Below are positions 5,686 through 61,102 of a stretch of DNA of 64,000 bases, in pieces. Position 1 is the first letter of the stretch, and each line of letters starts with the position of its first letter. Where the stretch lies: sequence record MK327941.1. The stretch is one strand, 5' to 3'. The translations under genes and the position numbers were made by a program. This DNA comes from Escherichia phage vB_EcoM_G37-3. The notes beneath the pieces are model-generated. The model saw only the letters and a program-made list of their open reading frames with translations. It made no database searches and was not told the DNA's origin.

Positions 5686-5859
5686 TCATGACACGCGCAC
5701 ATTTTTATCATAGTACCCGCCATTAATCCCGCGCGGGGCAGTTAATCCCTGTTTGCATTCTTTACCACATTCAGGGCATTCTGCCTTTTCACGTTCGGAA
5801 ATTTTGCGGATTTTCTGAAATTGACCGTGTTCTTCACAAGAATAATCATATAATGGCAT
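5686..5859 (-). CDS. FmdB-family zinc-ribbon protein (57 aa)
   Basis: MPLYDYSCEEHGQF...CPECG pattern; ATG at 5859 behind AAAGGGGA RBS, just after dexA stop. Confidence 0.5.
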   Translation of the reverse strand: MPLYDYSCEEHGQFQKIRKISEREKAECPECGKECKQGLTAPRGINGGYYDKNVRVS

Positions 5860-5860
5860 A

Positions 5861-6529
5861 TTATCCCCTTTGTTTCTTAACTGAATTTGGATCTGGATTT
5901 TCTGGCAAGTCTTCCAGACCCATAGCATAACGTTGTGCATAGATTAGCATAAGAATATCGCGAGCGCAATCATGAATTGCATCATGTGCGATAAAACCAT
6001 CTAGCGTACCCATTGGTAACGGACACTCACACATCCCGCGATGCATCAATGTACGCTCAATGGCGGTGCGAACATCTCGGATATTCCAGAATCGCACAGG
6101 TTCAAGGCTGAACGTCTCTCGTGTATTGTGTGCACGGCGGATCATATCAACTAGTAACGGAATATCAAACGCATTACCGCGTGACCACAATACGGATTTA
6201 ACCGGATCTACTCCTACGGCTTCACAGAATGCGTTAAAACGCGCTAAACCTTCTTTAGTTGATACTTCCGTACCATTTGTGATTAATTGCTTTCTCATGC
6301 CTTCTGAGGCGGTATTCTTCCACCATTCAACCACACCATGATCAAACACCCTTACACCTTTCTGAGAAGGAATATCAAATTTTACCAGAAAGGAATTGTC
6401 AACCAGTTCTTTAAATGTAGGTGGATTGTGCGGATCTTCTTTAAATCCGATTGCCGCCATATTGATAACCGCCCCATCAGGCGGATAACCTAAACTTTCA
6501 AAGTCAATCATTAAATCCACTGGAAGCAT
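5861..6529 (-). CDS. dexA: exonuclease A DexA (DEDD 3'-5' exonuclease)
   Basis: N-terminus MLPVDLMIDFESLGY matches T4 DexA; ATG at 6529 behind GGAGGA RBS; the first 24 codons of the track ORF are rejected as extension. Confidence 0.85.
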   Translation of the reverse strand: MLPVDLMIDFESLGYPPDGAVINMAAIGFKEDPHNPPTFKELVDNSFLVKFDIPSQKGVRVFDHGVVEWWKNTASEGMRKQLITNGTEVSTKEGLARFNAFCEAVGVDPVKSVLWSRGNAFDIPLLVDMIRRAHNTRETFSLEPVRFWNIRDVRTAIERTLMHRGMCECPLPMGTLDGFIAHDAIHDCARDILMLIYAQRYAMGLEDLPENPDPNSVKKQRG

Positions 6530-6530
6530 T

Positions 6531-6773
6531 TTAAATATCCTCCGCGATATGCCGGAACAACTCCAGATCGTTTTTATCCAGAATGAAACCGCTACAATCA
6601 ATAATCCCGTTACCGTAATTATCGGTTAACAGTCGTTCCGTTGCCATGTATGCGCGTACTTTGTTGTTAAAATTCATTACATGTTGTGCATAGTCACAAT
6701 GAATCTTTTGACGGTTCCACGCGACAATTGATTGTAGATGTATTACATTAGCCACATTATTAATAACAACCAT
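6531..6773 (-). CDS. hypothetical protein (80 aa)
   Basis: ATG at 6773 behind GAGGG RBS; track start is GTG without RBS. Confidence 0.45.
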   Translation of the reverse strand: MVVINNVANVIHLQSIVAWNRQKIHCDYAQHVMNFNNKVRAYMATERLLTDNYGNGIIDCSGFILDKNDLELFRHIAEDI

Positions 6774-6774
6774 A

Positions 6775-6951
6775 TCAAAACCCTCGCTTAGTGGAATGTT
6801 CTGGCATTTTATTGATACATTCAGCTTGGTAGTCACGAGATTTTTTTGACGAATTAAGAGCTACAGCCAAAAAATCCTGTAACTGTTCGTTTGTCATTTT
6901 TGGCTTACACCGCGTATCTAAACCCTTCGTTCTTCTAGCTTCATTAGCCAT
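6775..6951 (-). CDS. small protein (58 aa), tandem paralog A
   Basis: Below ORF-track cutoff; C-terminus YQAECINKMPEHSTKRGF; TGATATG junction to next gene. Confidence 0.4.
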   Translation of the reverse strand: MANEARRTKGLDTRCKPKMTNEQLQDFLAVALNSSKKSRDYQAECINKMPEHSTKRGF

Positions 6952-6952
6952 A

Positions 6953-7120
6953 TCAAAAACCTCGCTTAGTGAAATGCTCGATCATTTTATTGATACATGC
7001 AGCTTCACTATCGCCGGACACGTTCCAGCCGTATAGACCCCATCTAAAGCACATGGTAACAGTTCCATTGTGACGGCTTACCGTCACATCATTAAATTCT
7101 GGGATACTTCGCATAATCAT
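6953..7120 (-). CDS. small protein (55 aa), tandem paralog B
   Basis: Below ORF-track cutoff; C-terminus AACINKMIEHFTKRGF shared with paralog A; GAGGA RBS overlaps dda stop. Confidence 0.4.
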   Translation of the reverse strand: MIMRSIPEFNDVTVSRHNGTVTMCFRWGLYGWNVSGDSEAACINKMIEHFTKRGF

Positions 7121-7130
7121 AATAATTTCC

Positions 7131-8522
7131 TCAAATATAGTCTACTCGATACCTCGCACGGGTAACACCCACATATAATAACTGCATTGCCAATTCAAAG
7201 TCAACATTGTCTGTACACATGCAAGGAGTATACAGGAACACGCGGTCTACGCTGATCCCTTGTGACTTATGAATGGTGCAAGCTGGTAATGCTTTTACAT
7301 TCAAGAACATACGCTTCATCGTCCAGAATGAATCCCAATCTGGTTTAAATTTTGGATTCTCTTTCTTCATTTCGCGATATTGTCCGGCGACCGTATTCAG
7401 ATAGATAGAGAAAATGTTCTTCTGACGTTGTTCTGTCAGAATGTTGATTTCTACCAAATCCGGTTTATCTGTAGTGATTCCGACTGCATCTAAACCGACT
7501 TTCTGATTTAGGATTTCTTTGTCTTCGTCATCATCGACGCTTTCCACTTTCAGAGTATAGCCTAAAACTGGTTGCGGATCTACCCCCGTGCAACGTAATG
7601 TAAATTCACGCGGGATGACCTCTTTAACTCGGATCATCTCACCATTGTTAAAAATAACATTGGGAATCTTCTTCCCGCGTTCATCTCGCAGATATTCGAT
7701 CAATGGTTCCTGAGTAACCAGAATTTCATCTACAATCACTGGTTCATCGGTGTTATAAACGCGCTTACGTACAATTTCATTGAGTTTTTCGACGCTCTTG
7801 TTAGTGTAGGCCAGAATACGGTTTTCTAGAAGGTCTTCCGGCGTTTTAACGGTTTCGAAATAATGCTTCATAAACTCCGGCAGAGTTGAGCTATGGAATA
7901 CACCCTCGTTACCGCACTGCTTTTCGAATACCCATTTACCATTACGGACAGCGGTCGCCACATCAATTATTGGCGCATTAGATCGTTTAATCTCTGTAAG
8001 TTCTACATTCTGAAACCTTTCATCGGTGAAGAAAGGAGAGATCGACGTTGCACCGCTCGGATCAACTGGTCGTAACTGGTACAGATCACCCACGGCAATA
8101 ATAACAATTCGACCGTTGATACTCTTCATGAGAATATCAAATAGTTTCTTATCGACCATACTCGCTTCATCAACAATGATGATCTGAACATCATCTAGCT
8201 TAGGAGTATCTTTTTGTTCAAATACTTGAGTATCTTCATAGTTGGTCGGGTTAAGACGCAATAAAGCATGTAAAGTAAATGCTTGACGACCTACCGCCTT
8301 ACTCAAAACTTTTTTAGCCTGGTGGGTAGGCGTTGCCAAAACCACACCAGTTACACCACGGCGGACCATTTCCTGAACAATGAATTTCATCATTGCGGTT
8401 TTACCAGTACCCGCCGCACCCCGGACAGTTGTATGCTTCTTTTGTTCAATGCGTTTCATTAGAACATCAAAAGCATGTTTTTGCCCGTCTGTTAACATAT
8501 CGAAAGTTAATACTCTGCTCAT
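7131..8522 (-). CDS. dda: Dda DNA helicase (SF1)
   Basis: 463-aa ORF; Walker A GAAGTGKT; N-terminus aligns with T4 Dda. Confidence 0.9.
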   Translation of the reverse strand: MSRVLTFDMLTDGQKHAFDVLMKRIEQKKHTTVRGAAGTGKTAMMKFIVQEMVRRGVTGVVLATPTHQAKKVLSKAVGRQAFTLHALLRLNPTNYEDTQVFEQKDTPKLDDVQIIIVDEASMVDKKLFDILMKSINGRIVIIAVGDLYQLRPVDPSGATSISPFFTDERFQNVELTEIKRSNAPIIDVATAVRNGKWVFEKQCGNEGVFHSSTLPEFMKHYFETVKTPEDLLENRILAYTNKSVEKLNEIVRKRVYNTDEPVIVDEILVTQEPLIEYLRDERGKKIPNVIFNNGEMIRVKEVIPREFTLRCTGVDPQPVLGYTLKVESVDDDEDKEILNQKVGLDAVGITTDKPDLVEINILTEQRQKNIFSIYLNTVAGQYREMKKENPKFKPDWDSFWTMKRMFLNVKALPACTIHKSQGISVDRVFLYTPCMCTDNVDFELAMQLLYVGVTRARYRVDYI

Positions 8523-13630: not shown

Positions 13631-14266
13631 TCAAGCGAATGTAGAAAGCAAATGTTTTGTTTCTTTCAGTTGTCGTTCAAGATCTTTGCGTTTCTCTTTA
13701 AGTTGCATTTTAGCATTATTTCGCTGTTTTTCAACATCTTTATCAATACTCTTATTCCAGTTATCAATATCAGAATAAGTTGGCATACCCAATTCTAGAC
13801 CTAATGCGGTTGGATACAGGGTAACAGTCCATAAACCGCTAATCTTCTTAAATAGGTCGGGGTGTAGTGTACTATCTACATCTTCCGGTGTCAACTCTTT
13901 TTCTTCTTTCAGTGGTGGGATCTCGTCATATGGTTCCAGTGCATTTACTTTAATATCAGATACCTCATCAAAGAATCCGCGTACATCCGCAGGAAATACA
14001 CAAGCAATTTCCCAACCGTGATCACGCAGAGAAGTAATATTTTTCACTCCCCCGCCATGTGTGATGATTGATGTGACATTGCCATCAAGGTCCACCGAAT
14101 TTACGAGAAATGGCTTATCGTCTGTCAGATCATTATAAAACTGTGCTTCGGCTGTAGTCATCTCCAGAAACAGATCTCGGATCGGACGACCATCAGGTGC
14201 GTTACCTTCCTTGAGAGTATAAAAGCGACTTACGATCCATTTTGGCGGTAAAGCATTAGCGATCAT
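13631..14266 (-). CDS. hypothetical protein (211 aa)
   Basis: ATG at 14266 behind AGGAG RBS. Confidence 0.55.
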   Translation of the reverse strand: MIANALPPKWIVSRFYTLKEGNAPDGRPIRDLFLEMTTAEAQFYNDLTDDKPFLVNSVDLDGNVTSIITHGGGVKNITSLRDHGWEIACVFPADVRGFFDEVSDIKVNALEPYDEIPPLKEEKELTPEDVDSTLHPDLFKKISGLWTVTLYPTALGLELGMPTYSDIDNWNKSIDKDVEKQRNNAKMQLKEKRKDLERQLKETKHLLSTFA

Positions 14267-31842: not shown

Positions 31843-32667
31843 TTACCAACCTCGCTCTTTACCAATCAAAAATTCAACTTCACGACGTTTAATGTCTTCT
31901 TGAAGGTCTTTAATCTTCTGGCGATCTTGCATGATTTCATCCATCTTGTCAAGTGCCGCAATGAAATCATCGAAACGTTCAAAGGTTTTACCTTCATTTG
32001 CTTCGCCAAATTTAACCATTGTCAGGCCGTAACGACTACTAAACAGACGTTTCAACTGTCCAACGATTTTAGAATCAGTGGTTATAATTTCCAATTCTTC
32101 TACTTCACGAAAGAATTTTCTATCAGAATCAATAAACCAGCTAGTTCCTTTATGGTCTCTATCTTCGGTTGCGCTCATTAGAGTATGGTCTTTACCATCA
32201 ATTTCAATTACATCAATTTGCCCACATGGACTAACATTTTTAACAGTAAAAGGTCTATAATTTATTGCTCGTGCAATAACATAATTAAGGTTAGATACGT
32301 TTTCAGCATAATGGCAGAAGTCGGTCATAGCATTCGCATCTTTCCAAGTATAAGTTTTACCAACTTCCCATTTCTGGGGAACTTCTTCAACTTCACGAAA
32401 GAATTTTCTATCGAATGGACTAAAGAAATATGTTGCAGTCCAAATGTCTTTTCCTGTAGCAGTTTTCGCCGTATGATAAACACCGTCTAGCTCTATTGCA
32501 TTAATCCAACCGTTACCCTCGATCTCGATGATGGTAAATGGCTTGTCACCAATAGCTGCACTAATATCGCTGTTAAGTGGAGAAAGAACACCTTCTCCGT
32601 TAGTAATAAACTCAGTTTTAGCGTTTTCATCTTTCCAGGTGTAAGTTTTACCAATTTCCCATTTCAT
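31843..32667 (-). CDS. paralog-family protein P2 (two tandem domains)
   Basis: Two copies of W-E-[IV]-GKTYTWKD...PFT[IV]...IEIDGK...DRKFFREVEE. Confidence 0.6.
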   Translation of the reverse strand: MKWEIGKTYTWKDENAKTEFITNGEGVLSPLNSDISAAIGDKPFTIIEIEGNGWINAIELDGVYHTAKTATGKDIWTATYFFSPFDRKFFREVEEVPQKWEVGKTYTWKDANAMTDFCHYAENVSNLNYVIARAINYRPFTVKNVSPCGQIDVIEIDGKDHTLMSATEDRDHKGTSWFIDSDRKFFREVEELEIITTDSKIVGQLKRLFSSRYGLTMVKFGEANEGKTFERFDDFIAALDKMDEIMQDRQKIKDLQEDIKRREVEFLIGKERGW

Positions 32668-32679
32668 AATATATTCCCC

Positions 32680-33165
32680 TTAACCGATTTTATCAAGTTC
32701 GTTTAATGCTTTCTCTGCTTCCTGTATAGCTTGCACTCTTTCCGGCATTTTGTCAAGAAAATCTTTCAACTCTTCAAAACTGGAGATATGACGCAAGGCA
32801 TTAGCACCGATAGCCGCATGTGATTTGCATTCAAAGCGGATTTTATAATTATCCATAGCCAATTTGAGAAGGTCTATTAGATCATATTCATGACCAGGCA
32901 ATAAAACTTCTTTGAAGCACGCTCGGTCGCCATCGGAAAACCATATATTATCACCAACATCGATAGAACTAATATAATCCCCTTCGTGATTATAGATTGA
33001 ACGTACATTACCCCAACGGTCTACCGTAGCGACAGTAAATGGTTTATCTAGATATGTAAACACACCATCAATATTAGGTTTTTGTTCGTAACGCCAACAA
33101 TCACGCAAAATGCGCTTTTCGTCCTCACCAACCAACTTATATGTCTTCCCTTCTTCCCATTTCAT
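32680..33165 (-). CDS. paralog-family protein P3
   Basis: MKWEEGKTYK...PFTVATVD...; C-terminal LKDFLDKMPERV helix; ATG at 33165. Confidence 0.55.
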   Translation of the reverse strand: MKWEEGKTYKLVGEDEKRILRDCWRYEQKPNIDGVFTYLDKPFTVATVDRWGNVRSIYNHEGDYISSIDVGDNIWFSDGDRACFKEVLLPGHEYDLIDLLKLAMDNYKIRFECKSHAAIGANALRHISSFEELKDFLDKMPERVQAIQEAEKALNELDKIG

Positions 33166-33169
33166 AATA

Positions 33170-33695
33170 TCATCTCTCATTTTTGATACGTGATTCTAAT
33201 TGGATCATACGGTCGCGCGTTTGCTTGTATTCTCGAATAGCACCGATCCGGCTAGGCATACCATCAAGCACGCTCTTAATCCCTTCTATGGTAGTGATTT
33301 TAGCAATGCTATTATGTAACCCCATCTTATCGATCAACTGAATGTCGTAGGCTTCCATAAGCAGACCCAGACGTTCTAAAGTTAGGTCTTCTTTTTTCTT
33401 CCGATTCTGGAATCTTAGGTTCAATAGTAACTTCGGTAAAGAAACGGCGCTCACCTGACCAAAACCACACACCGGAACAACCAATAGGGGATTCTTTTAG
33501 CGTCATAGAGTCGTAACCACTGCCGATAATAGTAATTTCTCTAACATCACCATCATCGTCAATGTCTTCTACCATAAAAGGGCGACCAGCCAACAAGTCA
33601 ACAATACATCTGTTAATAGACGACGAAAATTTAGTCAGTTCGGCTTTCGACGCTTCGCATTCAATCTTGTAAGTTTTACCAACTTCCCATTCCAT
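33170..33695 (-). pseudogene. paralog-family member P4 interrupted by a frameshift
   Basis: N-terminal domain in frame of 33327..33704, C-terminal helix (GMPSRIGAI) in frame of 33170..33484; frames meet at an A6 run near 33392..33397. Confidence 0.45.
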
Positions 33696-33705
33696 AATAA
33701 TCACC

Positions 33706-34351: not shown

Positions 34352-34393
34352 ATTTGATTCTCCTGTAAAGTTGTATCTCGTCTTGATGAATAT

Positions 34394-34422
34394 AGTATAG
34401 GGGATCTCGCGATCCCCGTCAA
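34394..34422 (-). promoter_or_regulatory. early promoter (PeSL-type) TTGACG-N17-TATACT
   Basis: Spacer hairpin GGGGATCGCGAGATCCCC; approximate. Confidence 0.5.
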
Positions 34423-34431
34423 GCGTTTATT

Positions 34432-38071: not shown

Positions 38072-39246
38072 GCACTAACTTTTTTCTTTACTGCTTTCAC
38101 CTTCTGGCGAATTGCTCGAATCTCTTCGATCTCTTTTTCAGTATCTTTAACAATTTCTTTGCGATTCTGAATATCTTTATCGAGATTATCATCAAGTTTA
38201 GGCAGCATGTCAATCAAGAACTTTTTAAAGTCTTTCAGGTTTCGGATAACAGCACCTTCACCCATTACCGCCACGCCTACACCATCCGGCAGGTCGCCAA
38301 ACAGTTTAACCAGTTCAGACAGATGATCATGATCTTCTAGTGCTTCTTCCGGTTCAGATGGCAGTTCCACAAAGTAATAACGTTCATCATTGCTGATCAG
38401 GTGATACCAGCAAAGCCCAAAAGATTTAGGAGTATATTCTACACCACCAACTTCAACTGCGTCAACACTTCCGAAAGAATCTACTTTAGTTACCTTAAAT
38501 CCATGTTCCAGCGTTTTAATAATTTCAATAACATGACTGGATACGGTTTCAGTATTAAACCAATGAGGCAAATTATGTGGATTTGGCTTGTATCGTTCGC
38601 CTACTTTAAATCTCTGACCACGCTCTTGCATACGGACATATTCAACTCGCGTGATTTCCGCGAAGTATTCAAATTCGCCACCGTCAAACACAGAAGCCCA
38701 TTGATCACAAAAACGATCTGCCTTAACAGTTTCACCTTTCGCGGTGATCATGGTAGCTGATCCGTGCAATTCTTCTTCAACTAAAAAGCCATATTCGACA
38801 AAATCAACAAGTTTCATAGCTTCTTTGTGATCTGGATCATGCTCTCCCCAGAATCGCTTAAATTCTTGCAAACCTTCTGGGGTAAACGAATAACATTTAC
38901 CTTTTTCAAAGTAAGTCGGCATTGCATCCTCTTTCTTGTTCATCGCTTCGTATGCCTCTTTTGAGATGCGTTTAAAGTATTTACGCTCATTGTGCATAAT
39001 CATAGTAGCCCAATAATCAACAATATCATTAGCGGAATAAACTACATCTCCAGCTTCAATAGTAATAACATGACCGTGGTCATCTTTTTCTAATACTTTA
39101 AAGCCCTTTTCTACGATTTCAGCAACACGAATATGACCACGGCGCGAAGCATCGGTCAGAATAATTGAATAGCGAGAAAAGTCTAGAAACTCATCTTTAC
39201 CGCCTTCACGGAATGCATAGTAATGACCTTCAAAGAATTTAGCCAT
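38068..39246 (-). CDS. paralog-family protein P5 (three tandem domains)
   Basis: Three G-F-[KL]-V...ERKYF-like repeats plus C-terminal coiled coil; GAGAGGATTATATT leader. Confidence 0.6.
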   Translation of the reverse strand: MAKFFEGHYYAFREGGKDEFLDFSRYSIILTDASRRGHIRVAEIVEKGFKVLEKDDHGHVITIEAGDVVYSANDIVDYWATMIMHNERKYFKRISKEAYEAMNKKEDAMPTYFEKGKCYSFTPEGLQEFKRFWGEHDPDHKEAMKLVDFVEYGFLVEEELHGSATMITAKGETVKADRFCDQWASVFDGGEFEYFAEITRVEYVRMQERGQRFKVGERYKPNPHNLPHWFNTETVSSHVIEIIKTLEHGFKVTKVDSFGSVDAVEVGGVEYTPKSFGLCWYHLISNDERYYFVELPSEPEEALEDHDHLSELVKLFGDLPDGVGVAVMGEGAVIRNLKDFKKFLIDMLPKLDDNLDKDIQNRKEIVKDTEKEIEEIRAIRQKVKAVKKKVSA

Positions 39247-39277
39247 AATATAATCCTCTCGTTGTTTAGATGGGAGT

Positions 39278-39306
39278 ATCTTACTACTCCCGTTTCATCA
39301 TGTCAA
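39278..39306 (-). promoter_or_regulatory. early promoter (PeSL-type) TTGACA-N17-TAAGAT
   Basis: -10 inside inverted repeat GGGAGTA/TACTCCC; approximate. Confidence 0.5.
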
Positions 39307-39869
39307 GCGTTAAATGACTTTTGGATCTCTTTCAGTTCAGCTACTTTATCGGCGCTATATTTTGCTTGATGTTCCATGCGCTTAAGCTCACCTTTGATAT
39401 AGGTTTCTAGCTTAGGTTTATTCTCAATCAGAAAATCTTTCAAGTCATCGGCATTTTTAAAGTATAGCTGATTATCAAAGCTAAAATCTTCCAGCGTCAA
39501 TGATACCAAAGAAGACTTCGCAAACAAGTTAATCAGATCTTCCAGAGATTCTTCTTTCTTAATTGGTTTCATTTCTTCAAACTGCTTTTTAGTGATGCGT
39601 TTAAAGTATTTTCGCTCGTTTGCAGCAATCAGAACAGATGCACCTTCATACTCATGAGTTTCTACCAGATACACACGCCCCATCGCATCAACAGTGAGAA
39701 CTTTAAAGCCGTTACAAAGCACGTCATACAAGAACTTATTATGTTGCGGACATCGTTTGATAAATTCTGCGACTGTTTCTGCACTACGGAAAGTATAGTA
39801 ACGACCTCGTTCAAAAACAGCGTCATTGGGTGACTTAACCGAATATACTTTGTATGTTTTCTGTACCAT
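39303..39869 (-). CDS. paralog-family protein P6
   Basis: GFKVLTVDAMGRVYLVE...ERKYFKRI; C-terminal LKDFLIENKPKL; ATG at 39869. Confidence 0.55.
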   Translation of the reverse strand: MVQKTYKVYSVKSPNDAVFERGRYYTFRSAETVAEFIKRCPQHNKFLYDVLCNGFKVLTVDAMGRVYLVETHEYEGASVLIAANERKYFKRITKKQFEEMKPIKKEESLEDLINLFAKSSLVSLTLEDFSFDNQLYFKNADDLKDFLIENKPKLETYIKGELKRMEHQAKYSADKVAELKEIQKSFNA

Positions 39870-39883
39870 AATATAATCCTCTA

Positions 39884-40156
39884 TCATTTCACTAATTGAA
39901 CAGCACGGAACAGAATGCGGTCACACGGAAGCAGCATAAATTCCCAACGCGGATCAAAGTCTTTAGCGGTATATGTTTTCCCATCAACCGAGATTTCACT
40001 TACATAACCAATAGGTGACACTTTAAGAACAGTAAATCCATTCTTGATGACTTCGTAGGTATCTTTCAATCCTTCGTAGTCATCCTCTAGGAAGTCTTTA
40101 CGTGCTTGCTCAGATTTAAAAACATAGGCCACACCGGATTTAAACATCTTACGCAT
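39884..40156 (-). CDS. paralog-family protein P7 (single domain, 90 aa)
   Basis: GFTVLKVSPIGYVSEISVDGKTY...RILFRAV; AAGGAGAATCAACA leader. Confidence 0.5.
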   Translation of the reverse strand: MRKMFKSGVAYVFKSEQARKDFLEDDYEGLKDTYEVIKNGFTVLKVSPIGYVSEISVDGKTYTAKDFDPRWEFMLLPCDRILFRAVQLVK

Positions 40157-40187
40157 TGTTGATTCTCCTTCTTGATTAGATGGGAGT

Positions 40188-40216
40188 ATTTTACTACTCC
40201 CATTTCATGTTGTCAA
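40188..40216 (-). promoter_or_regulatory. early promoter (PeSL-type) TTGACA-N17-TAAAAT
   Basis: -10 inside GGGAGTA/TACTCCC inverted repeat; approximate. Confidence 0.5.
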
Positions 40217-40219
40217 CCA

Positions 40220-40693
40220 CTATCTTAATCTTTGTATGAATTGTTTCTTATACTTCTTCGTGATCTCTTCTCTTGTATCCGCGTCACAGTAATCGAAACC
40301 TTCTGCGTCCATAATAGCAACCATCTCCGCTCGTGTCAAGCGTGAAAATCGTTTTACTTTATCAACAGCATATTGAGGATGTAAATGATTGTTGGTGTAG
40401 TCTCCTTTGATGTAATTAACATAGTTTGTAGCCCAAACAACGAAATCAGCACCTAAAGCACCAACACCAAACCGTTTAAAGTCTCCGGTCAACGATCCTT
40501 CTAGGCGGTTGCAACACGAATGAAGCAATCCCCTTACGCGGCCTTGCCCTTTCCCATCTAGATCGTGGTCGTGGTCAAGATGGTTTTTGCTCATATCCTC
40601 AAAAAGTGGCAATTGACAAAGGGGGCAAATGCCCCCCTGTTTTTCGAATAGTTCTTGTTTGTACTCTTTAGCACTCTTAGCAGTCAGTAACAT
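40220..40693 (-). CDS. 49: endonuclease VII gp49 (Holliday junction resolvase)
   Basis: 157 aa from ATG at 40693; zinc motif CPLCQ...HLDHDHDLDG...RGLL, aligns with T4 gp49. Confidence 0.88.
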   Translation of the reverse strand: MLLTAKSAKEYKQELFEKQGGICPLCQLPLFEDMSKNHLDHDHDLDGKGQGRVRGLLHSCCNRLEGSLTGDFKRFGVGALGADFVVWATNYVNYIKGDYTNNHLHPQYAVDKVKRFSRLTRAEMVAIMDAEGFDYCDADTREEITKKYKKQFIQRLR

Positions 40694-44045: not shown

Positions 44046-44087
44046 TTTGATTCTCCTTAAGAAAGTGTGTTTCGTTTTGATGTGTGT

Positions 44088-44116
44088 AGTATAGGGGATA
44101 TGTGATCCCCTGTCAA
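44088..44116 (-). promoter_or_regulatory. early promoter (PeSL-type) TTGACA-N17-TATACT
   Basis: Spacer hairpin GGGGATCACATATCCCC; approximate. Confidence 0.5.
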
Positions 44117-44123
44117 CAACTTT

Positions 44124-44333
44124 TTATGATTTTAGTGAATTAACCACTACATCAAAATGATGTACAGAGTACACCTTATTAAACACATATTCATCGTGTT
44201 TAGGAATAGCCCCTAATCGCTCTATTTCGCTCGCTGACACGATAAACCGTTTATCCGGTGCATTTACCTTATATGCTTCAACAACGCACGGAAAACGCGT
44301 TTTAGCGAGTTCGGGATAGTTTTCTGACTCCAT
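44124..44333 (-). CDS. hypothetical protein (start uncertain)
   Basis: Track ORF 44124..44453 overlaps the upstream ORF by 100 nt; internal Met at 44333 chosen, no RBS support. Confidence 0.3.
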   Translation of the reverse strand: MESENYPELAKTRFPCVVEAYKVNAPDKRFIVSASEIERLGAIPKHDEYVFNKVYSVHHFDVVVNSLKS

Positions 44334-44694: not shown

Positions 44695-44948
44695 AGATTC
44701 CTCAACCAGTTATTAAAGCGAGCAAAGCATGATTCTTTTCGTGCTTTTTCTGCTTTACGGGCAAATCTATCCAAGAAACACCATTCATAATCATCATTGT
44801 AAATTCCCTCAAAGGAAGCTCCAGCTTTGCGTAATTCTTTGGTTGTTACCAAGAAACTATCATAGAAGGGAGTTCCTCTAACAATGATCGGAAGTTTAAC
44901 ACCTTTCAAGAAAGAATAATCGGCATCATTAATAATTTCAATTTTCAT
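44691..44948 (-). CDS. hypothetical protein (85 aa)
   Basis: ORF with stop/start overlap to neighbours. Confidence 0.45.
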   Translation of the reverse strand: MKIEIINDADYSFLKGVKLPIIVRGTPFYDSFLVTTKELRKAGASFEGIYNDDYEWCFLDRFARKAEKARKESCFARFNNWLRNL

Positions 44949-46200: not shown

Positions 46201-46239
46201 TTTTGATTCTCCTAGAAAGTGTCGTGTTTCGATGGGTGT

Positions 46240-46268
46240 ATTATGCAATAACACCGGATCGCTGTCAA
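46240..46268 (-). promoter_or_regulatory. early promoter (PeSL-type) TTGACA-N17-CATAAT
   Basis: Hexamers on minus strand with conserved ACACCCATCGAAAC leader; approximate. Confidence 0.5.
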
Positions 46269-46286
46269 CACTTTCTAAGAAAAATT

Positions 46287-47452: not shown

Positions 47453-47481
47453 TTTGGTTCTCCTTTGTTGTCGATGTGTGC

Positions 47482-47510
47482 ATTATGCTATACCCTATTC
47501 CTGTTGTCAA
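47482..47510 (-). promoter_or_regulatory. early promoter (PeSL-type) TTGACA-N17-CATAAT
   Basis: Hexamers on minus strand; approximate. Confidence 0.5.
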
Positions 47511-47520
47511 CACCTAAAAA

Positions 47521-47551
47521 CGAAAAAGCCACCCTTTCGGATGGCTTTTTG
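47521..47551. terminator. bidirectional intrinsic terminator hairpin
   Basis: AAAAAGCCACCCTTTCGGATGGCTTTTT with A/T runs on both sides. Confidence 0.6.
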
Positions 47552-51759: not shown

Positions 51760-52095
51760 TTATCCTTTCTTAAACAAATTGCGAATCCAGTATACAAACG
51801 GGATTTCTTTAAACTTGAACTTGTCAATAGTTAATTCTTTAGTAGCAAGATGAATACCATAAGCATCATGTGTCACGATATGCCATTTTCTATAGTCCAA
51901 ATGTGAACAACCGTCTGGATCTAGGTTAATAAGAGTTTCTCGCTCACTAGGATTATTTTTCCACAATTTTGTAATAGGATCGCACATAATTCGACCTAGC
52001 GTACCATGAATAATCTCACAACGGTAAAGTTTTCCAGCAGTGAGATAGGCGCACCCGTCATAGTCTGTATAAACAAACACTTCTTTAACACTCAT
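51760..52095 (-). CDS. small protein, GCSHL-motif tandem paralog A
   Basis: DPDGCSHLDYRKWHIV; AAGGAGTATTAAA leader after an early promoter. Confidence 0.45.
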   Translation of the reverse strand: MSVKEVFVYTDYDGCAYLTAGKLYRCEIIHGTLGRIMCDPITKLWKNNPSERETLINLDPDGCSHLDYRKWHIVTHDAYGIHLATKELTIDKFKFKEIPFVYWIRNLFKKG

Positions 52096-52123
52096 TTTAA
52101 TACTCCTTTGTTTCGATGGGGGT

Positions 52124-52152
52124 ATATTACTACCCCCGTTTTGTTGTGTCAA
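52124..52152 (-). promoter_or_regulatory. early promoter (PeSL-type) TTGACA-N17-TAATAT
   Basis: -10 inside GGGGGTA/TACCCCC inverted repeat; approximate. Confidence 0.5.
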
Positions 52153-52398
52153 CTACTTTTTCAAGATTTTTTTAATTGCGTTCCAAAGACCTTTATTCTC
52201 AGGTTGTTTTGGTTCTTCGATCAGTGTCCAGGTTCGACCGTCTAAGTGTGCACAATTTTTAAGACAAATAAAAATCTGGTGTCCTTTATCATCACGGATA
52301 TAACCACTATTCGCAAATCTTTCATGTGGTGTATATTCATACAGTGTATTTGGTGTAATATACTTGCGGTTACTATAAGGTGTCATCACATACATCAT
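52153..52398 (-). CDS. small protein, GCSHL-motif tandem paralog B
   Basis: ICLKNCAHLDGRTWTLI; ATGA overlap with paralog C. Confidence 0.45.
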   Translation of the reverse strand: MMYVMTPYSNRKYITPNTLYEYTPHERFANSGYIRDDKGHQIFICLKNCAHLDGRTWTLIEEPKQPENKGLWNAIKKILKK

Positions 52399-58020: not shown

Positions 58021-58043
58021 TTTGATACTCCTTAGTAGTTCGT

Positions 58044-58073
58044 GTTTCGTTTCGATGGGTGTATTATGCTATA
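58044..58073 (-). repeat. PeSL core repeat copy 1 (GTTTCGTTTCGATGGGTGTATTATGCTATA)
   Basis: Near-identical 30-mer recurs at about 59022 and 61012; approximate. Confidence 0.6.
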
Positions 58074-58091
58074 CACCCTCTCGCGTGTCAA
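58063..58091 (-). promoter_or_regulatory. early promoter (PeSL-type) TTGACA-N17-CATAAT
   Basis: -10 inside GGGTGTA/TACACCC inverted repeat; approximate. Confidence 0.55.
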
Positions 58092-58099
58092 CAACTTTT

Positions 58100-58288
58100 T
58101 TAGTCTTTTTTCATAATTTCTAGAGCAGTTTCTACAGCACCTTTCCAACCTTCCCACATAATGGACATAGTAAGGAAGTTAAAGCACCCGCAGGAATCAA
58201 CCTTTTTAGAGATAAACCATTCTACAAACGCTTCGCTCATACCATGCTCTTTAGCGGATTCGCGTAATTGTTCAATTTGGTCTTCCAT
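58100..58288 (-). CDS. hypothetical protein (62 aa)
   Basis: ORF on the common strand. Confidence 0.4.
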   Translation of the reverse strand: MEDQIEQLRESAKEHGMSEAFVEWFISKKVDSCGCFNFLTMSIMWEGWKGAVETALEIMKKD

Positions 58289-58742: not shown

Positions 58743-58771
58743 TTTGGTCCTCCCGTTTCGTTGATGGTTGT

Positions 58772-58800
58772 ATTGTAGGGGAGTTATCCTCCCCTGTCAA
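58772..58800 (-). promoter_or_regulatory. early promoter (PeSL-type) TTGACA-N17-TACAAT
   Basis: Spacer hairpin GGGGAGGATAACTCCCC; approximate. Confidence 0.5.
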
Positions 58801-58808
58801 CACTTTTA

Positions 58809-58994: not shown

Positions 58995-59021
58995 AATTTG
59001 ATTCTCCGTTTAAGAAAGTGT

Positions 59022-59050
59022 GTTTCGTTTCGATGGGTGTATTATGCTAT
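59022..59050 (-). repeat. PeSL core repeat copy 2
   Basis: Same 30-mer as at 58044 and 61012; approximate. Confidence 0.6.
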
Positions 59051-59069
59051 AGGCGTGATCTGGTGTCAA
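59041..59069 (-). promoter_or_regulatory. early promoter (PeSL-type) TTGACA-N17-CATAAT
   Basis: Hexamers on minus strand; approximate. Confidence 0.55.
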
Positions 59070-59094
59070 CAACTTTTTTAAAAAATTTTAGGCA

Positions 59095-60552: not shown

Positions 60553-60583
60553 TTTGATTCTCCTTTCGTTTGTTTGTGGGGGT

Positions 60584-60612
60584 ATCTTACTACCCCCGTT
60601 TCATGTTGTCAA
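60584..60612 (-). promoter_or_regulatory. early promoter (PeSL-type) TTGACA-N17-TAAGAT
   Basis: -10 inside GGGGGTA/TACCCCC inverted repeat; approximate. Confidence 0.5.
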
Positions 60613-60618
60613 CTATTT

Positions 60619-60993
60619 TTAAGAATATTTTACTTCGTCTACAATATCTTTCATGACATTGATTTCCATTCCGGTCAGAACACGTTGGAACATGTGCTGC
60701 ACATACGCTTTCAGGTATTCATTTGATGGCTTGCTATCGAAAGTCTTTTTAGTGTAGTAGTCATCACCGAAAGCTACTGTAATTACATTTTCGTCGTCGT
60801 TCCAAGCGATATAAGCAAATTTGCCGTTATCCCAGAAGCGAGCACTAATTGCTACTTTTGTTGAATCGAATCCTACTTCGCTGTGAGATTCAAGAACTAC
60901 TTGCGTGCCAGTTTCTTTATGAATGTAGTAGCGGGATACTAAGTCAAAGTTACGGGTGTAGTGACATTCAAATTTATCTTTAAACATCATCAT
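60619..60993 (-). CDS. hypothetical protein (124 aa)
   Basis: ATG at 60993 behind TAGGAGAATCAAA leader; upstream part of track ORF overlaps the promoter. Confidence 0.5.
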   Translation of the reverse strand: MMMFKDKFECHYTRNFDLVSRYYIHKETGTQVVLESHSEVGFDSTKVAISARFWDNGKFAYIAWNDDENVITVAFGDDYYTKKTFDSKPSNEYLKAYVQHMFQRVLTGMEINVMKDIVDEVKYS

Positions 60994-61011
60994 TTTGATT
61001 CTCCTAAGTGT

Positions 61012-61041
61012 GTTTCGTTTCGATATGTGCATTATGCTATA
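61012..61041 (-). repeat. PeSL core repeat copy 3
   Basis: Same 30-mer as at 58044 and 59022 with two substitutions; approximate. Confidence 0.6.
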
Positions 61042-61059
61042 GTCGTTTATGGTTGTCAA
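61031..61059 (-). promoter_or_regulatory. early promoter (PeSL-type) TTGACA-N17-CATAAT
   Basis: Hexamers on minus strand; approximate. Confidence 0.55.
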
Positions 61060-61102
61060 CACCTAAAAACAAAAAACCCCGAAAATTTTTCGGGGTATAA
61101 AA

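Follow-up and report, generated by a model that had tools for sequence, protein, structure and literature searches.

Cassettes that combine a PeSL element with a small ORFan are known from bacteriophages of the RB49/Phi1 type (Arbiol et al., 2010, PMC2839356; Comeau et al., 2014, PMC4122927). The PeSL (promoter-early stem-loop) element is a conserved sequence of 50-100 nucleotides (nt); even phages that are near-identical can differ by having or lacking the ORFan, as is also the case for the locus described here. Most gain and loss of ORFans between RB49 and Phi1 has been ascribed to PeSL promoter-terminator cassettes, but by the count of the same authors, four of the 14 ORFans which distinguish the two phages have no adjacent PeSL (Arbiol et al., 2010, PMC2839356). 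ORFan009.1 is listed as one of seven genes found in Phi1 but not in RB49, and it is placed outside the hyperplastic regions (Arbiol et al., 2010, PMC2839356). We report here on the corresponding locus of Escherichia phage vB_EcoM_G37-3, located in a stretch of 64,000 nt from sequence record MK327941.1 (hereafter, the window, to whose numbering all positions refer). Between the dda and dexA genes, two adjacent minus-strand open reading frames (ORFs) of 55 and 58 amino acids (aa) share a C-terminal peptide and a TGATATG junction to the next gene. The locus is, with good probability, an optional 178-bp gene cassette carrying the orthologue of Phi1 ORFan009.1, in which flanking repeats enable loss of the gene and its insertion has left the common peptide behind as a scar. 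The available sections of the published Phi1/RB49 description (Arbiol et al.) make no mention of a flanking 58-nt repeat, a shared tail, a chimeric ancestry or an excision product.

The locus is 92-99.9% identical to those of Krischvirus phages such as RB49, Phi1, JSE and GEC-3S, and by its sequence the phage itself is a Krischvirus, i.e., an RB49/Phi1-like coliphage. The 55-aa ORF (6953..7120, minus strand; MIMRS...EAACINKMIEHFTKRGF-stop) is the orthologue of Phi1 ORF010 (phi1p010) and the 58-aa ORF (6775..6951, minus strand; MANEA...AECINKMPEHSTKRGF-stop) that of ORF009.1 (phi1p009.1); both are annotated genes in Phi1, as is ORF009, the orthologue of a third small gene (80 aa; 6531..6773, minus strand) lying between the 58-aa ORF and dexA. 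This third gene amends the context given in a preliminary description of this DNA, which had correctly recognized the two shorter ORFs and the peptide and junction common to their ends. The orthologues in Phi1 and RB49 show 91-100% aa identity and occupy the same slot between dda and ORF009/dexA; in RB49, ORF010c and ORF009c are present and ORF009.1 is absent. The three genes belong to PHROG families of unknown function (phrog_16162 for ORF010, phrog_37371 for ORF009.1 and phrog_15021 for ORF009).

The C-terminal ends of the two ORFs, EAACINKMIEHFTKRGF-stop for the 55-aa and QAECINKMPEHSTKRGF-stop for the 58-aa product, are encoded within a direct repeat of 58 nt (6770-6827 versus 6948-7005), the copies of which are identical at 51 of 58 positions and lie 178 nt apart, start to start. 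Copy B (6948..7005, minus strand) comprises codons 40-55 of ORF010, its stop codon TGA (6955-6953), a single T and the ATGG opening ORF009.1, with a Shine-Dalgarno (SD) sequence GAGG at 6963-6960. Copy A (6770..6827, minus strand) has the same organization, with codons 43-58 of ORF009.1, TGA (6777-6775), one T and the ATGG opening ORF009, the start signals of which come from this copy (GAGG at 6785-6782). Both junctions read TGA-T-ATG, in which the ATG opens the following gene; the GAGG is located 8 nt before this ATG, within Arg-Gly codons. A 29-nt core of the repeat, searched with up to three mismatches, occurs twice in the window versus never in 100 dinucleotide-preserving shuffles, and a repeat survey of the 64 kb identified this junction repeat, in its two copies, as the sole one of its kind.

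The repeat that the preliminary description had put at about 70 nt is thus real but shorter, and its similarity breaks off abruptly upstream of AAGCTG. The likeness of the two ORFs is limited to the last 21 residues and these 58 nt; their N-terminal 38-42 residues show no similarity (p ~0.11 for DNA and ~0.2 for protein, with no frame combination performing better), so that the full-length resemblance of paralogues is lacking. The earlier designation of the pair as tandem duplicated mini-ORFs does not hold, as only the last 16-17 codons, the SD sequence and the ATG are duplicated, while the N-terminal parts are unrelated. These parts have separate relatives, namely Kagunavirus ORFs for ORF010 and small proteins of N4-like phages for ORF009.1. 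The shared peptide is best read as an insertion scar, not as evidence that a gene was duplicated.

ORF010 is found in about 60 Krischvirus records and matches phrog_16162 over its full length (residues 1-55, E 4.5e-44). In the divergent Krischvirus lineage KFS-EC/AV108, with 69% aa identity, the ending ...EADCINSMIDHFTKRGY-stop and the TGATATG are kept despite several synonymous changes. Beyond this genus, unannotated 49-aa ORFs of Kagunavirus siphophages align to ORF010 residues 8-53, including ...KADCINQLLQWATSRK-stop (tblastn E 1e-3 in a 2.3-Gb database; pairwise E 6e-12; E 3e-8 to phrog_16162). An AlphaFold (AF2) model of ORF010 from its single sequence, with a mean confidence (pLDDT) of 71, has a beta-beta-beta-alpha topology in which the helix, residues 39-53, coincides with the tail. 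Kept in KFS-EC/AV108 and in the Kagunavirus homologues and forming the predicted C-terminal helix, the tail is native to ORF010. Our best guess is that ORF010 is a small conserved beta3-alpha protein whose role is unrelated to that of the ORF009.1 module; a Foldseek search of BFVD with the model returned only its own PHB13 orthologue.

Kagunavirus matches carry the label "NinH protein", which belongs to the adjacent gene; the true match is the unannotated 49-aa ORF at the record end. In Raoultella phage RP180, for instance, this homologue lies unannotated at the extreme end of the record (~44696-44843; L004:1497-1644), and it is unannotated or "hypothetical" in about 18 Kagunavirus-type records.

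By sequence comparison, ORF009.1 is a chimera in which residues 1-42 form a module from a mini-protein of N4-like phages (here, Schitoviridae) and residues 43-58 are the copied ORF010 tail. Residues 6-37 (RRTK.LDTR.KPKMTNEQLQDF...SK) align with the middle segment of a gp6-like subgroup of Gamaleyavirus (hhalign probability 97.4%, E 1.1e-11). An initial hhalign comparison with the whole gp6 family was uninformative, as most members are without the module, and the subgroup alignment was needed. The CDS0085 product of Gamaleyavirus nithesis (...RRAKQGITTRLIPVMTNEQLQEFIDTGLKQSK...) matches the N-terminal part of ORF009.1 with a pairwise E of 5e-10. A profile search of 1.8 billion representative proteins further identified P0133 (E 5e-6), a free-standing 49-aa ORF (MMNTAKRTKRLETRRKPKMTNEQLLAFLSAGVGLDSKVLYQLGDNTISK) to which residues 1-42 of ORF009.1 align in full and which is located on a 75-kb N4-like contig also having genes with N4 gp1 and gp2 domains. 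Reciprocally, phrog_37371 matches P0133 (E 7.8e-11) and nithesis CDS0085 (E 6.8e-6). The homology begins at the start codon and ends at ...DYQ, thereby coinciding exactly with the 120-nt cargo enclosed by the repeats (6828..6947, minus strand). This cargo starts with the second base of ORF009.1 codon 2, and its last nucleotide is the first of codon 42. At the DNA level, blastn retrieved this cargo from 17 Krischvirus records only.

Unlike the N4 gp6 proteins, ORF009.1 has neither of the conserved ends MRKSLIMGTKEDV... and ...IVTFNHPCIK and finds no match in the gp6 family proper (phrog_7648), in which the module is a variable middle insert carried by one subgroup only. In the family alignment (nithesis, L003:1453-1632), these ends are invariant and enclose a hypervariable middle. 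The MTNEQLQEF module is confined to one Gamaleyavirus gp6 subgroup, and in one member, P0040, a related segment is found, though displaced along the protein. Such a distribution suggests that the gp6-like module is itself mobile within small proteins. The AF2 model of ORF009.1 is of low confidence (pLDDT 61) and contains two helices; at best guess, the basic, helical N4-like module would be a dispensable accessory factor acting on the host.

A different ancestry was considered for the frame of phage Makalu, in which a run of seven A is shortened to six (...NLVTTKMHVSIK-stop). Prompted by a longer ungapped tblastn match, this A6 frame was examined as the ancestral one, homologous to the gp6 C-terminus ...RIVTFNHPCIK-stop. 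It was rejected, as the A7 frame holds the anchors AAAKCTCGT and TGTATCAA in frame with nithesis, P0133 backs the native ...YQ... reading and the A6 frame fits only two of the five invariant family positions.

Of the 58 Krischvirus records matching the locus, 17 have the complete 178-bp unit, and in RB49, JSE and others, the missing stretch is exactly 178 nt, i.e., one repeat period. Its presence is uncoupled from the ORF010 haplotype: among phages with the haplotype of the window, JSE is without and Phi1 with the cassette, and among those of the RB49 type, RB49 is without and kvi and ECD7 with it. Both haplotypes thus occur in either state, which fits ordinary recombination among co-infecting relatives. 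Evidence for loss comes from two phages, 011D4 and PHB13. In silico removal of one repeat period from 011D4 yields a sequence of 495 nt which equals that of PHB13 at 494 of 495 positions, and the single repeat of PHB13 has the copy A markers CCA and TCC along with an extra A that frameshifts its ORF010 tail. Judged by these markers, PHB13 documents a natural product of recombination between the two repeat copies, and the pair indicates that a 58-nt coding and initiation junction suffices for precise natural loss. It has been reported that a homology of only ~50 bp is required for T4-type recombination (Singer et al., 1982, as quoted in PMC2839356), so that a 58-nt repeat is sufficient.

Within one genome, the two copies are identical at 49 to 57 of 58 positions, with 49-54 in most genomes, 57 in Makalu and 56 in the VALL22 scaffold. 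The VALL22 cargo is only 79% identical to that of the window, with in-frame indels and a QLLAF type like that of P0133, while the identity of its ORF010 body to the window's is 98%. When IMG/VR and metagenome contigs were scanned for exact patterns of the junction, five loci and no new cargo type in the slot were recovered.

The copied tail differs from its source by its constraint. The pN/pS ratio (nonsynonymous over synonymous polymorphism) is 0.87 for the copied tail of ORF009.1, 0.57 for the cargo and 0.31-0.33 for ORF010 and ORF009, and in the cassette-bearing genomes, it is 0.31 for the ORF010 body and 0.11 for its tail; as the sequences are short and the pairs summed are not independent of each other, these values have descriptive character only. 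They point to a relaxed constraint on the copied tail. In addition, ORF009.1 has five independent homopolymer frameshift alleles at three runs, four of which spare the N4-like module. Two of these runs, given for the coding strand, lie within the cargo: the A7 run (6841..6847, minus strand), the length of which is 6, 7 or 8 in relatives (A6 in Makalu, A8 in ECD7), and the T6 run (6869..6874, minus strand), which is T5 in pEJ01 and there truncates the module. The third is the A4 run of repeat copy A (6807..6810, minus strand), which is A5 in 011D4, PHB13 and SRR25667334 and A3 in VALL22, where a TGA follows directly behind CINK. All frameshift alleles but that of pEJ01 keep residues 1-36. The functional part of ORF009.1, if any, is the N4-like module, and the tail is a passenger.

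Asked in terms of coding conservation in relatives, as the preliminary description had proposed, the two ORFs give different answers: ORF010 is conserved as a protein, while ORF009.1 is missing in 41 of 58 records and frameshifted in several, with a near-neutral tail copy. The last 23 nt at the 3' end of the repeat (ACTAAGCGAGGKTTTTGATATGG; SD, spacer, stop and start) are almost invariant in both copies and in all genomes, including those with a broken copy A frame. This part is best read as the translation-initiation region of the next gene, which makes the repeat both coding and regulatory. In some relatives, all of them viable phages, ORF009.1 ends 14-87 nt early, so that translational coupling, if it occurs, would not be essential.

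Two metagenomic alleles deserve mention in their own right. In Logan contigs SRR25667334 (L030:725-901) and SRR25667326 (L031:1201-1377), an A7-to-A6 and an A4-to-A5 change compensate each other, recoding 12 internal residues and regaining the stop at TGATATG. This double frameshift allele, seen in two sequencing runs, may hint that ending translation at the junction is selected for; alternatively, it could have arisen by recombination between two alleles with one slip each. In Logan contig ERR11570863 (L032:1201-1392), the ORF009.1 stop is changed from TGA to TGT, giving a 63-aa ORF which overlaps the ORF009 start.

A mechanism can be proposed from the anatomy of the locus, its chimerism and presence/absence polymorphism, the natural excision product and the relaxed copied tail. 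The cassette consists of 120 nt of foreign cargo and a second copy of the 58-nt junction, together forming a seamless insert in a minus-strand gene string. The junction itself comprises the last 16 codons of ORF010, the stop codon, the embedded SD sequence (GAGG, followed by 8 nt) and the ATG with which the next gene opens. As a consequence of its duplication, the cargo would inherit the ribosome-binding site and start codon that first served ORF009, and ORF009 would retain an identical set of start signals; the cargo frame, for its part, continues without a shift into the copied C-terminal helix of ORF010. We infer that the duplicated junction provides the cargo and ORF009 each with a working SD sequence and ATG. 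As direct repeats, the two copies would then be substrates for homologous recombination, allowing precise deletion of the cassette, occasional homogenization by conversion and the flanking of alternative cargo alleles. The first insertion may have come about by microhomology, by a small circle that became integrated or by a duplication with later replacement.

Other explanations of the repeat have to be weighed against this insertion cassette. In a true tandem duplication, ORF010 would have been copied, with the 5' two-thirds of the downstream copy diverging beyond recognition and the 3' third remaining similar. The ORFs are indeed adjacent, co-oriented and alike in size, with 16 of the last 21 residues and the junction being identical; yet the boundary is abrupt, with 88% identity within the repeat versus chance level just upstream, the unit lengths differ (169 versus 178 nt) and the 42 N-terminal residues of the 58-aa ORF match N4-like phages on their own, from the ATG to ...DYQ. 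This makes divergence after duplication very improbable, and although the second junction copy could have arisen by duplication and subsequent replacement, the present ORF would still be a chimera and not a diverged paralogue. An artefact of assembly or sequencing, which short, tandem-like repeats and length differences at homopolymers (typical error sites) might evoke, can be practically dismissed, as the same architecture occurs in 17 independently sequenced genomes and several metagenome assemblies from different countries and platforms. It is also unlikely that the repeat is primarily regulatory, i.e., that it acts as a PeSL-like cassette, as a translational operator or as structured RNA and has persisted in duplicate on account of this function, with the peptide being incidental. 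The near invariance of the 3' 23 nt even where the copy A frame is broken is in line with such a role, and PeSLs too end in an SD sequence and start codon and flank differential ORFans of RB49 and Phi1. Neither copy, however, contains a sigma-70-like promoter (promoter scan of the minus strand within 6770-6827 and 6948-7005) or a terminator-like hairpin, Rfam gave no match to the repeat at permissive E-values, and RNA folding of the copies is no better than that of shuffles (z +0.48 and -1.49), with structures differing between copies. Moreover, the changes seen in phages with a single copy, and likewise in the divergent KFS-EC lineage, are synonymous and indicate protein-coding constraint, genuine PeSL-like repeats number more than 13 in the window versus two copies here, and a role in translation initiation is already part of the cassette explanation. 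The element, most of which encodes protein (16 codons belonging to the upstream ORF) and which is present twice in 64 kb, is unlike the intergenic, multicopy PeSL and agrees with it on one count, as GAGG-N8-ATG ends both copies and flanks an ORFan differing between close relatives. The 58-nt repeat is not a PeSL.

A further alternative concerns the origin of the right-hand joint, which may have been formed by microhomology-mediated illegitimate recombination with an N4-like mini-gene during co-infection of E. coli, with no circular intermediate; we consider this a tentative possibility. The end of the proposed donor, ...CAT CCA TGT ATC AAA TAA (...HPCIK-stop) resembles ORF010 ...GCA TGT ATC AAT AAA ATG (...ACINKM), and a 10-nt in-frame identity, CATGTATCAA, is shared by the 3' end of the nithesis gp6-like gene (L003:1600-1625) and the ORF010 tail (window 6985-7001, minus strand). 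This identity may be due to chance or represent the microhomology of the original recombination. Members of the N4-like family end in ...CIK-stop or ...ISK-stop at the equivalent position, the VALL22 allele stops directly behind CINK and the left joint is the ATG only, with no extended homology. On the other hand, the repeat reaches 6-7 nt (AAGCTG) upstream of CATGTATCAA, which is not predicted by a crossover inside it, the VALL22 stop is a homopolymer slip from A4 to A3 rather than an ancestral stop, and blastn found no donor with nucleotide-level similarity in the databases.

Some points also weigh against the cassette explanation itself. Because of a match of 6-7 nt (AAGCTG) upstream of the 10-nt N4-like identity, the exact right-hand joint is ambiguous. 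The founding insertion is not reconstructable, and blastn detected no nucleotide-level donor of the cargo outside Krischvirus. Among the cassette-lacking phages other than PHB13, those that never had the cassette are not distinguishable from those that lost it. Translation of both ORFs and its possible coupling across TGAnATG are predictions from the SD spacing, and the descriptive character of the pN/pS ratios applies to the relaxed tail as well. Finally, some homopolymer frameshifts could be sequencing errors, although A6 and A5 have each been seen repeatedly, in isolates and assemblies independent of each other.

With regard to the surroundings, every gene in this part of the window, including the small-ORF cluster between dda and dexA, is on the minus strand. 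The dda helicase gene (7131..8522, minus strand), a 463-aa ORF annotated as Dda in RB49 and Phi1, is the upstream neighbour in the same gene string, and the exonuclease A gene dexA (5861..6529, minus strand), annotated in relatives, is the downstream limit of the cluster. Presumably, dda, ORF010, ORF009 and dexA are early genes. Searches with the small ORFs were otherwise of little help: Pfam has no credible domain in the 55-aa or 58-aa ORF, PADLOC has no match at the locus, PDB sequence searches gave nothing significant and word-indexed protein searches with both window ORFs returned Krischvirus proteins only.

Elsewhere in the window, a family of repeats of 44-78 nt on the minus strand, with TTGACA, a GC-rich inverted repeat, a TATAAT-like motif and an SD sequence, fits the published description of PeSL. 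The repeat survey placed these PeSL-like repeats (all minus strand) at approximately 2783-2843, 13859-13902, 34383-34429, 39229-39314, 40139-40227, 44067-44127, 46219-46279, 47461-47537, 52075-52163, 58042-58102, 58761-58807, 59020-59089, 60577-60620 and 61010-61086. They occupy at least 13 other sites in the window, the nearest being ~4 and ~7 kb from the cassette, and none flanks it. A genuine tandem array of paralogues, unlike ORF010 and ORF009.1, is found at 31843-33704 (minus strand), where a repeated domain starting with MKWE(I/V)GKTY.W occurs twice in a 274-aa ORF and once in each of its neighbours of 166 and 125 aa, with short DNA repeats that are 78-97% identical and spaced by 288-530 nt. 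A 53-nt direct repeat, 77% identical with copies 629 nt apart (38939-38991 and 39568-39620), probably reflects another paralogous gene pair. At 5686-5940 (minus strand), the mechanically called ORF has 84 aa and would overlap dexA in this form, while the annotated gp39.2 orthologue (Zn-ribbon, PF09723) starts at an internal ATG and has 57 aa (5686-5859).

The significance of the locus is limited by the fact that both ORFs were already annotated and that linker-mediated modular exchange is already established. For one ORFan, it nonetheless provides a concrete alternative to PeSL, as no PeSL-like repeat lies within ~4 kb, and it illustrates how an in-frame insertion can make a new chimeric micro-protein from parts of T4-like and N4-like phages, the borrowed part then drifting. 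For annotation, when neighbouring tiny ORFs have a C-terminal peptide in common, this can be the scar of a recombination and need not indicate paralogy, and frameshifted ORFan variants may retain the functional module. More speculatively, the 58-nt junction could be a translation-level counterpart of PeSL, i.e., a linker with which T4-type phages capture foreign mini-gene modules, express them in frame, swap and discard them in an operon with no need for a promoter. The ~30-residue KPxMTNEQLQxF(I/L)...SK would then be a mobile host-factor-binding peptide, which in coliphages unrelated to each other has been joined to three or more scaffolds, namely the tail of Krischvirus ORF010, the middle part of gp6 in N4-like phages and N4-like ORFs that stand free; we hold this extended scheme to be doubtful.

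Among known systems, the T4 plasmid insertion/substitution system offers one parallel: a single crossover between a circle with a short homology and the phage gives an insert flanked by direct repeats of this homology, which segregates later by recombination between the repeats. Unlike in this insertion-duplication, a circle of 178 bp would be very small, and annealing or slippage can delete the insert with no circle formed. As in the linker model of Botstein and Campbell, short conserved sequences at module boundaries steer homologous exchange into the correct regulatory context, but here only one module of 40 codons is concerned, and part of the linker encodes protein. The closest likeness is with PeSL cassettes, as a single small ORFan lies between two copies of an element at whose end the SD sequence and start codon for the following gene are found, and the empty site is restored once these copies recombine. 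Unlike PeSL, the flanking element is here the 3' end of a coding gene together with an initiation region, has no promoter, AT-rich tract or GC stem-loop, and occurs twice (versus ~50 copies) in a co-oriented gene string outside the hyperplastic regions. The cargo is, in addition, fused in frame to a borrowed peptide, and the cassette is consequently without expression signals of its own and dependent on resident transcription and translation signals. Taken together, the locus is best described as cassette shuffling by a linker, in a variant that is independent of PeSL and has a cross-family chimeric micro-protein as its product.

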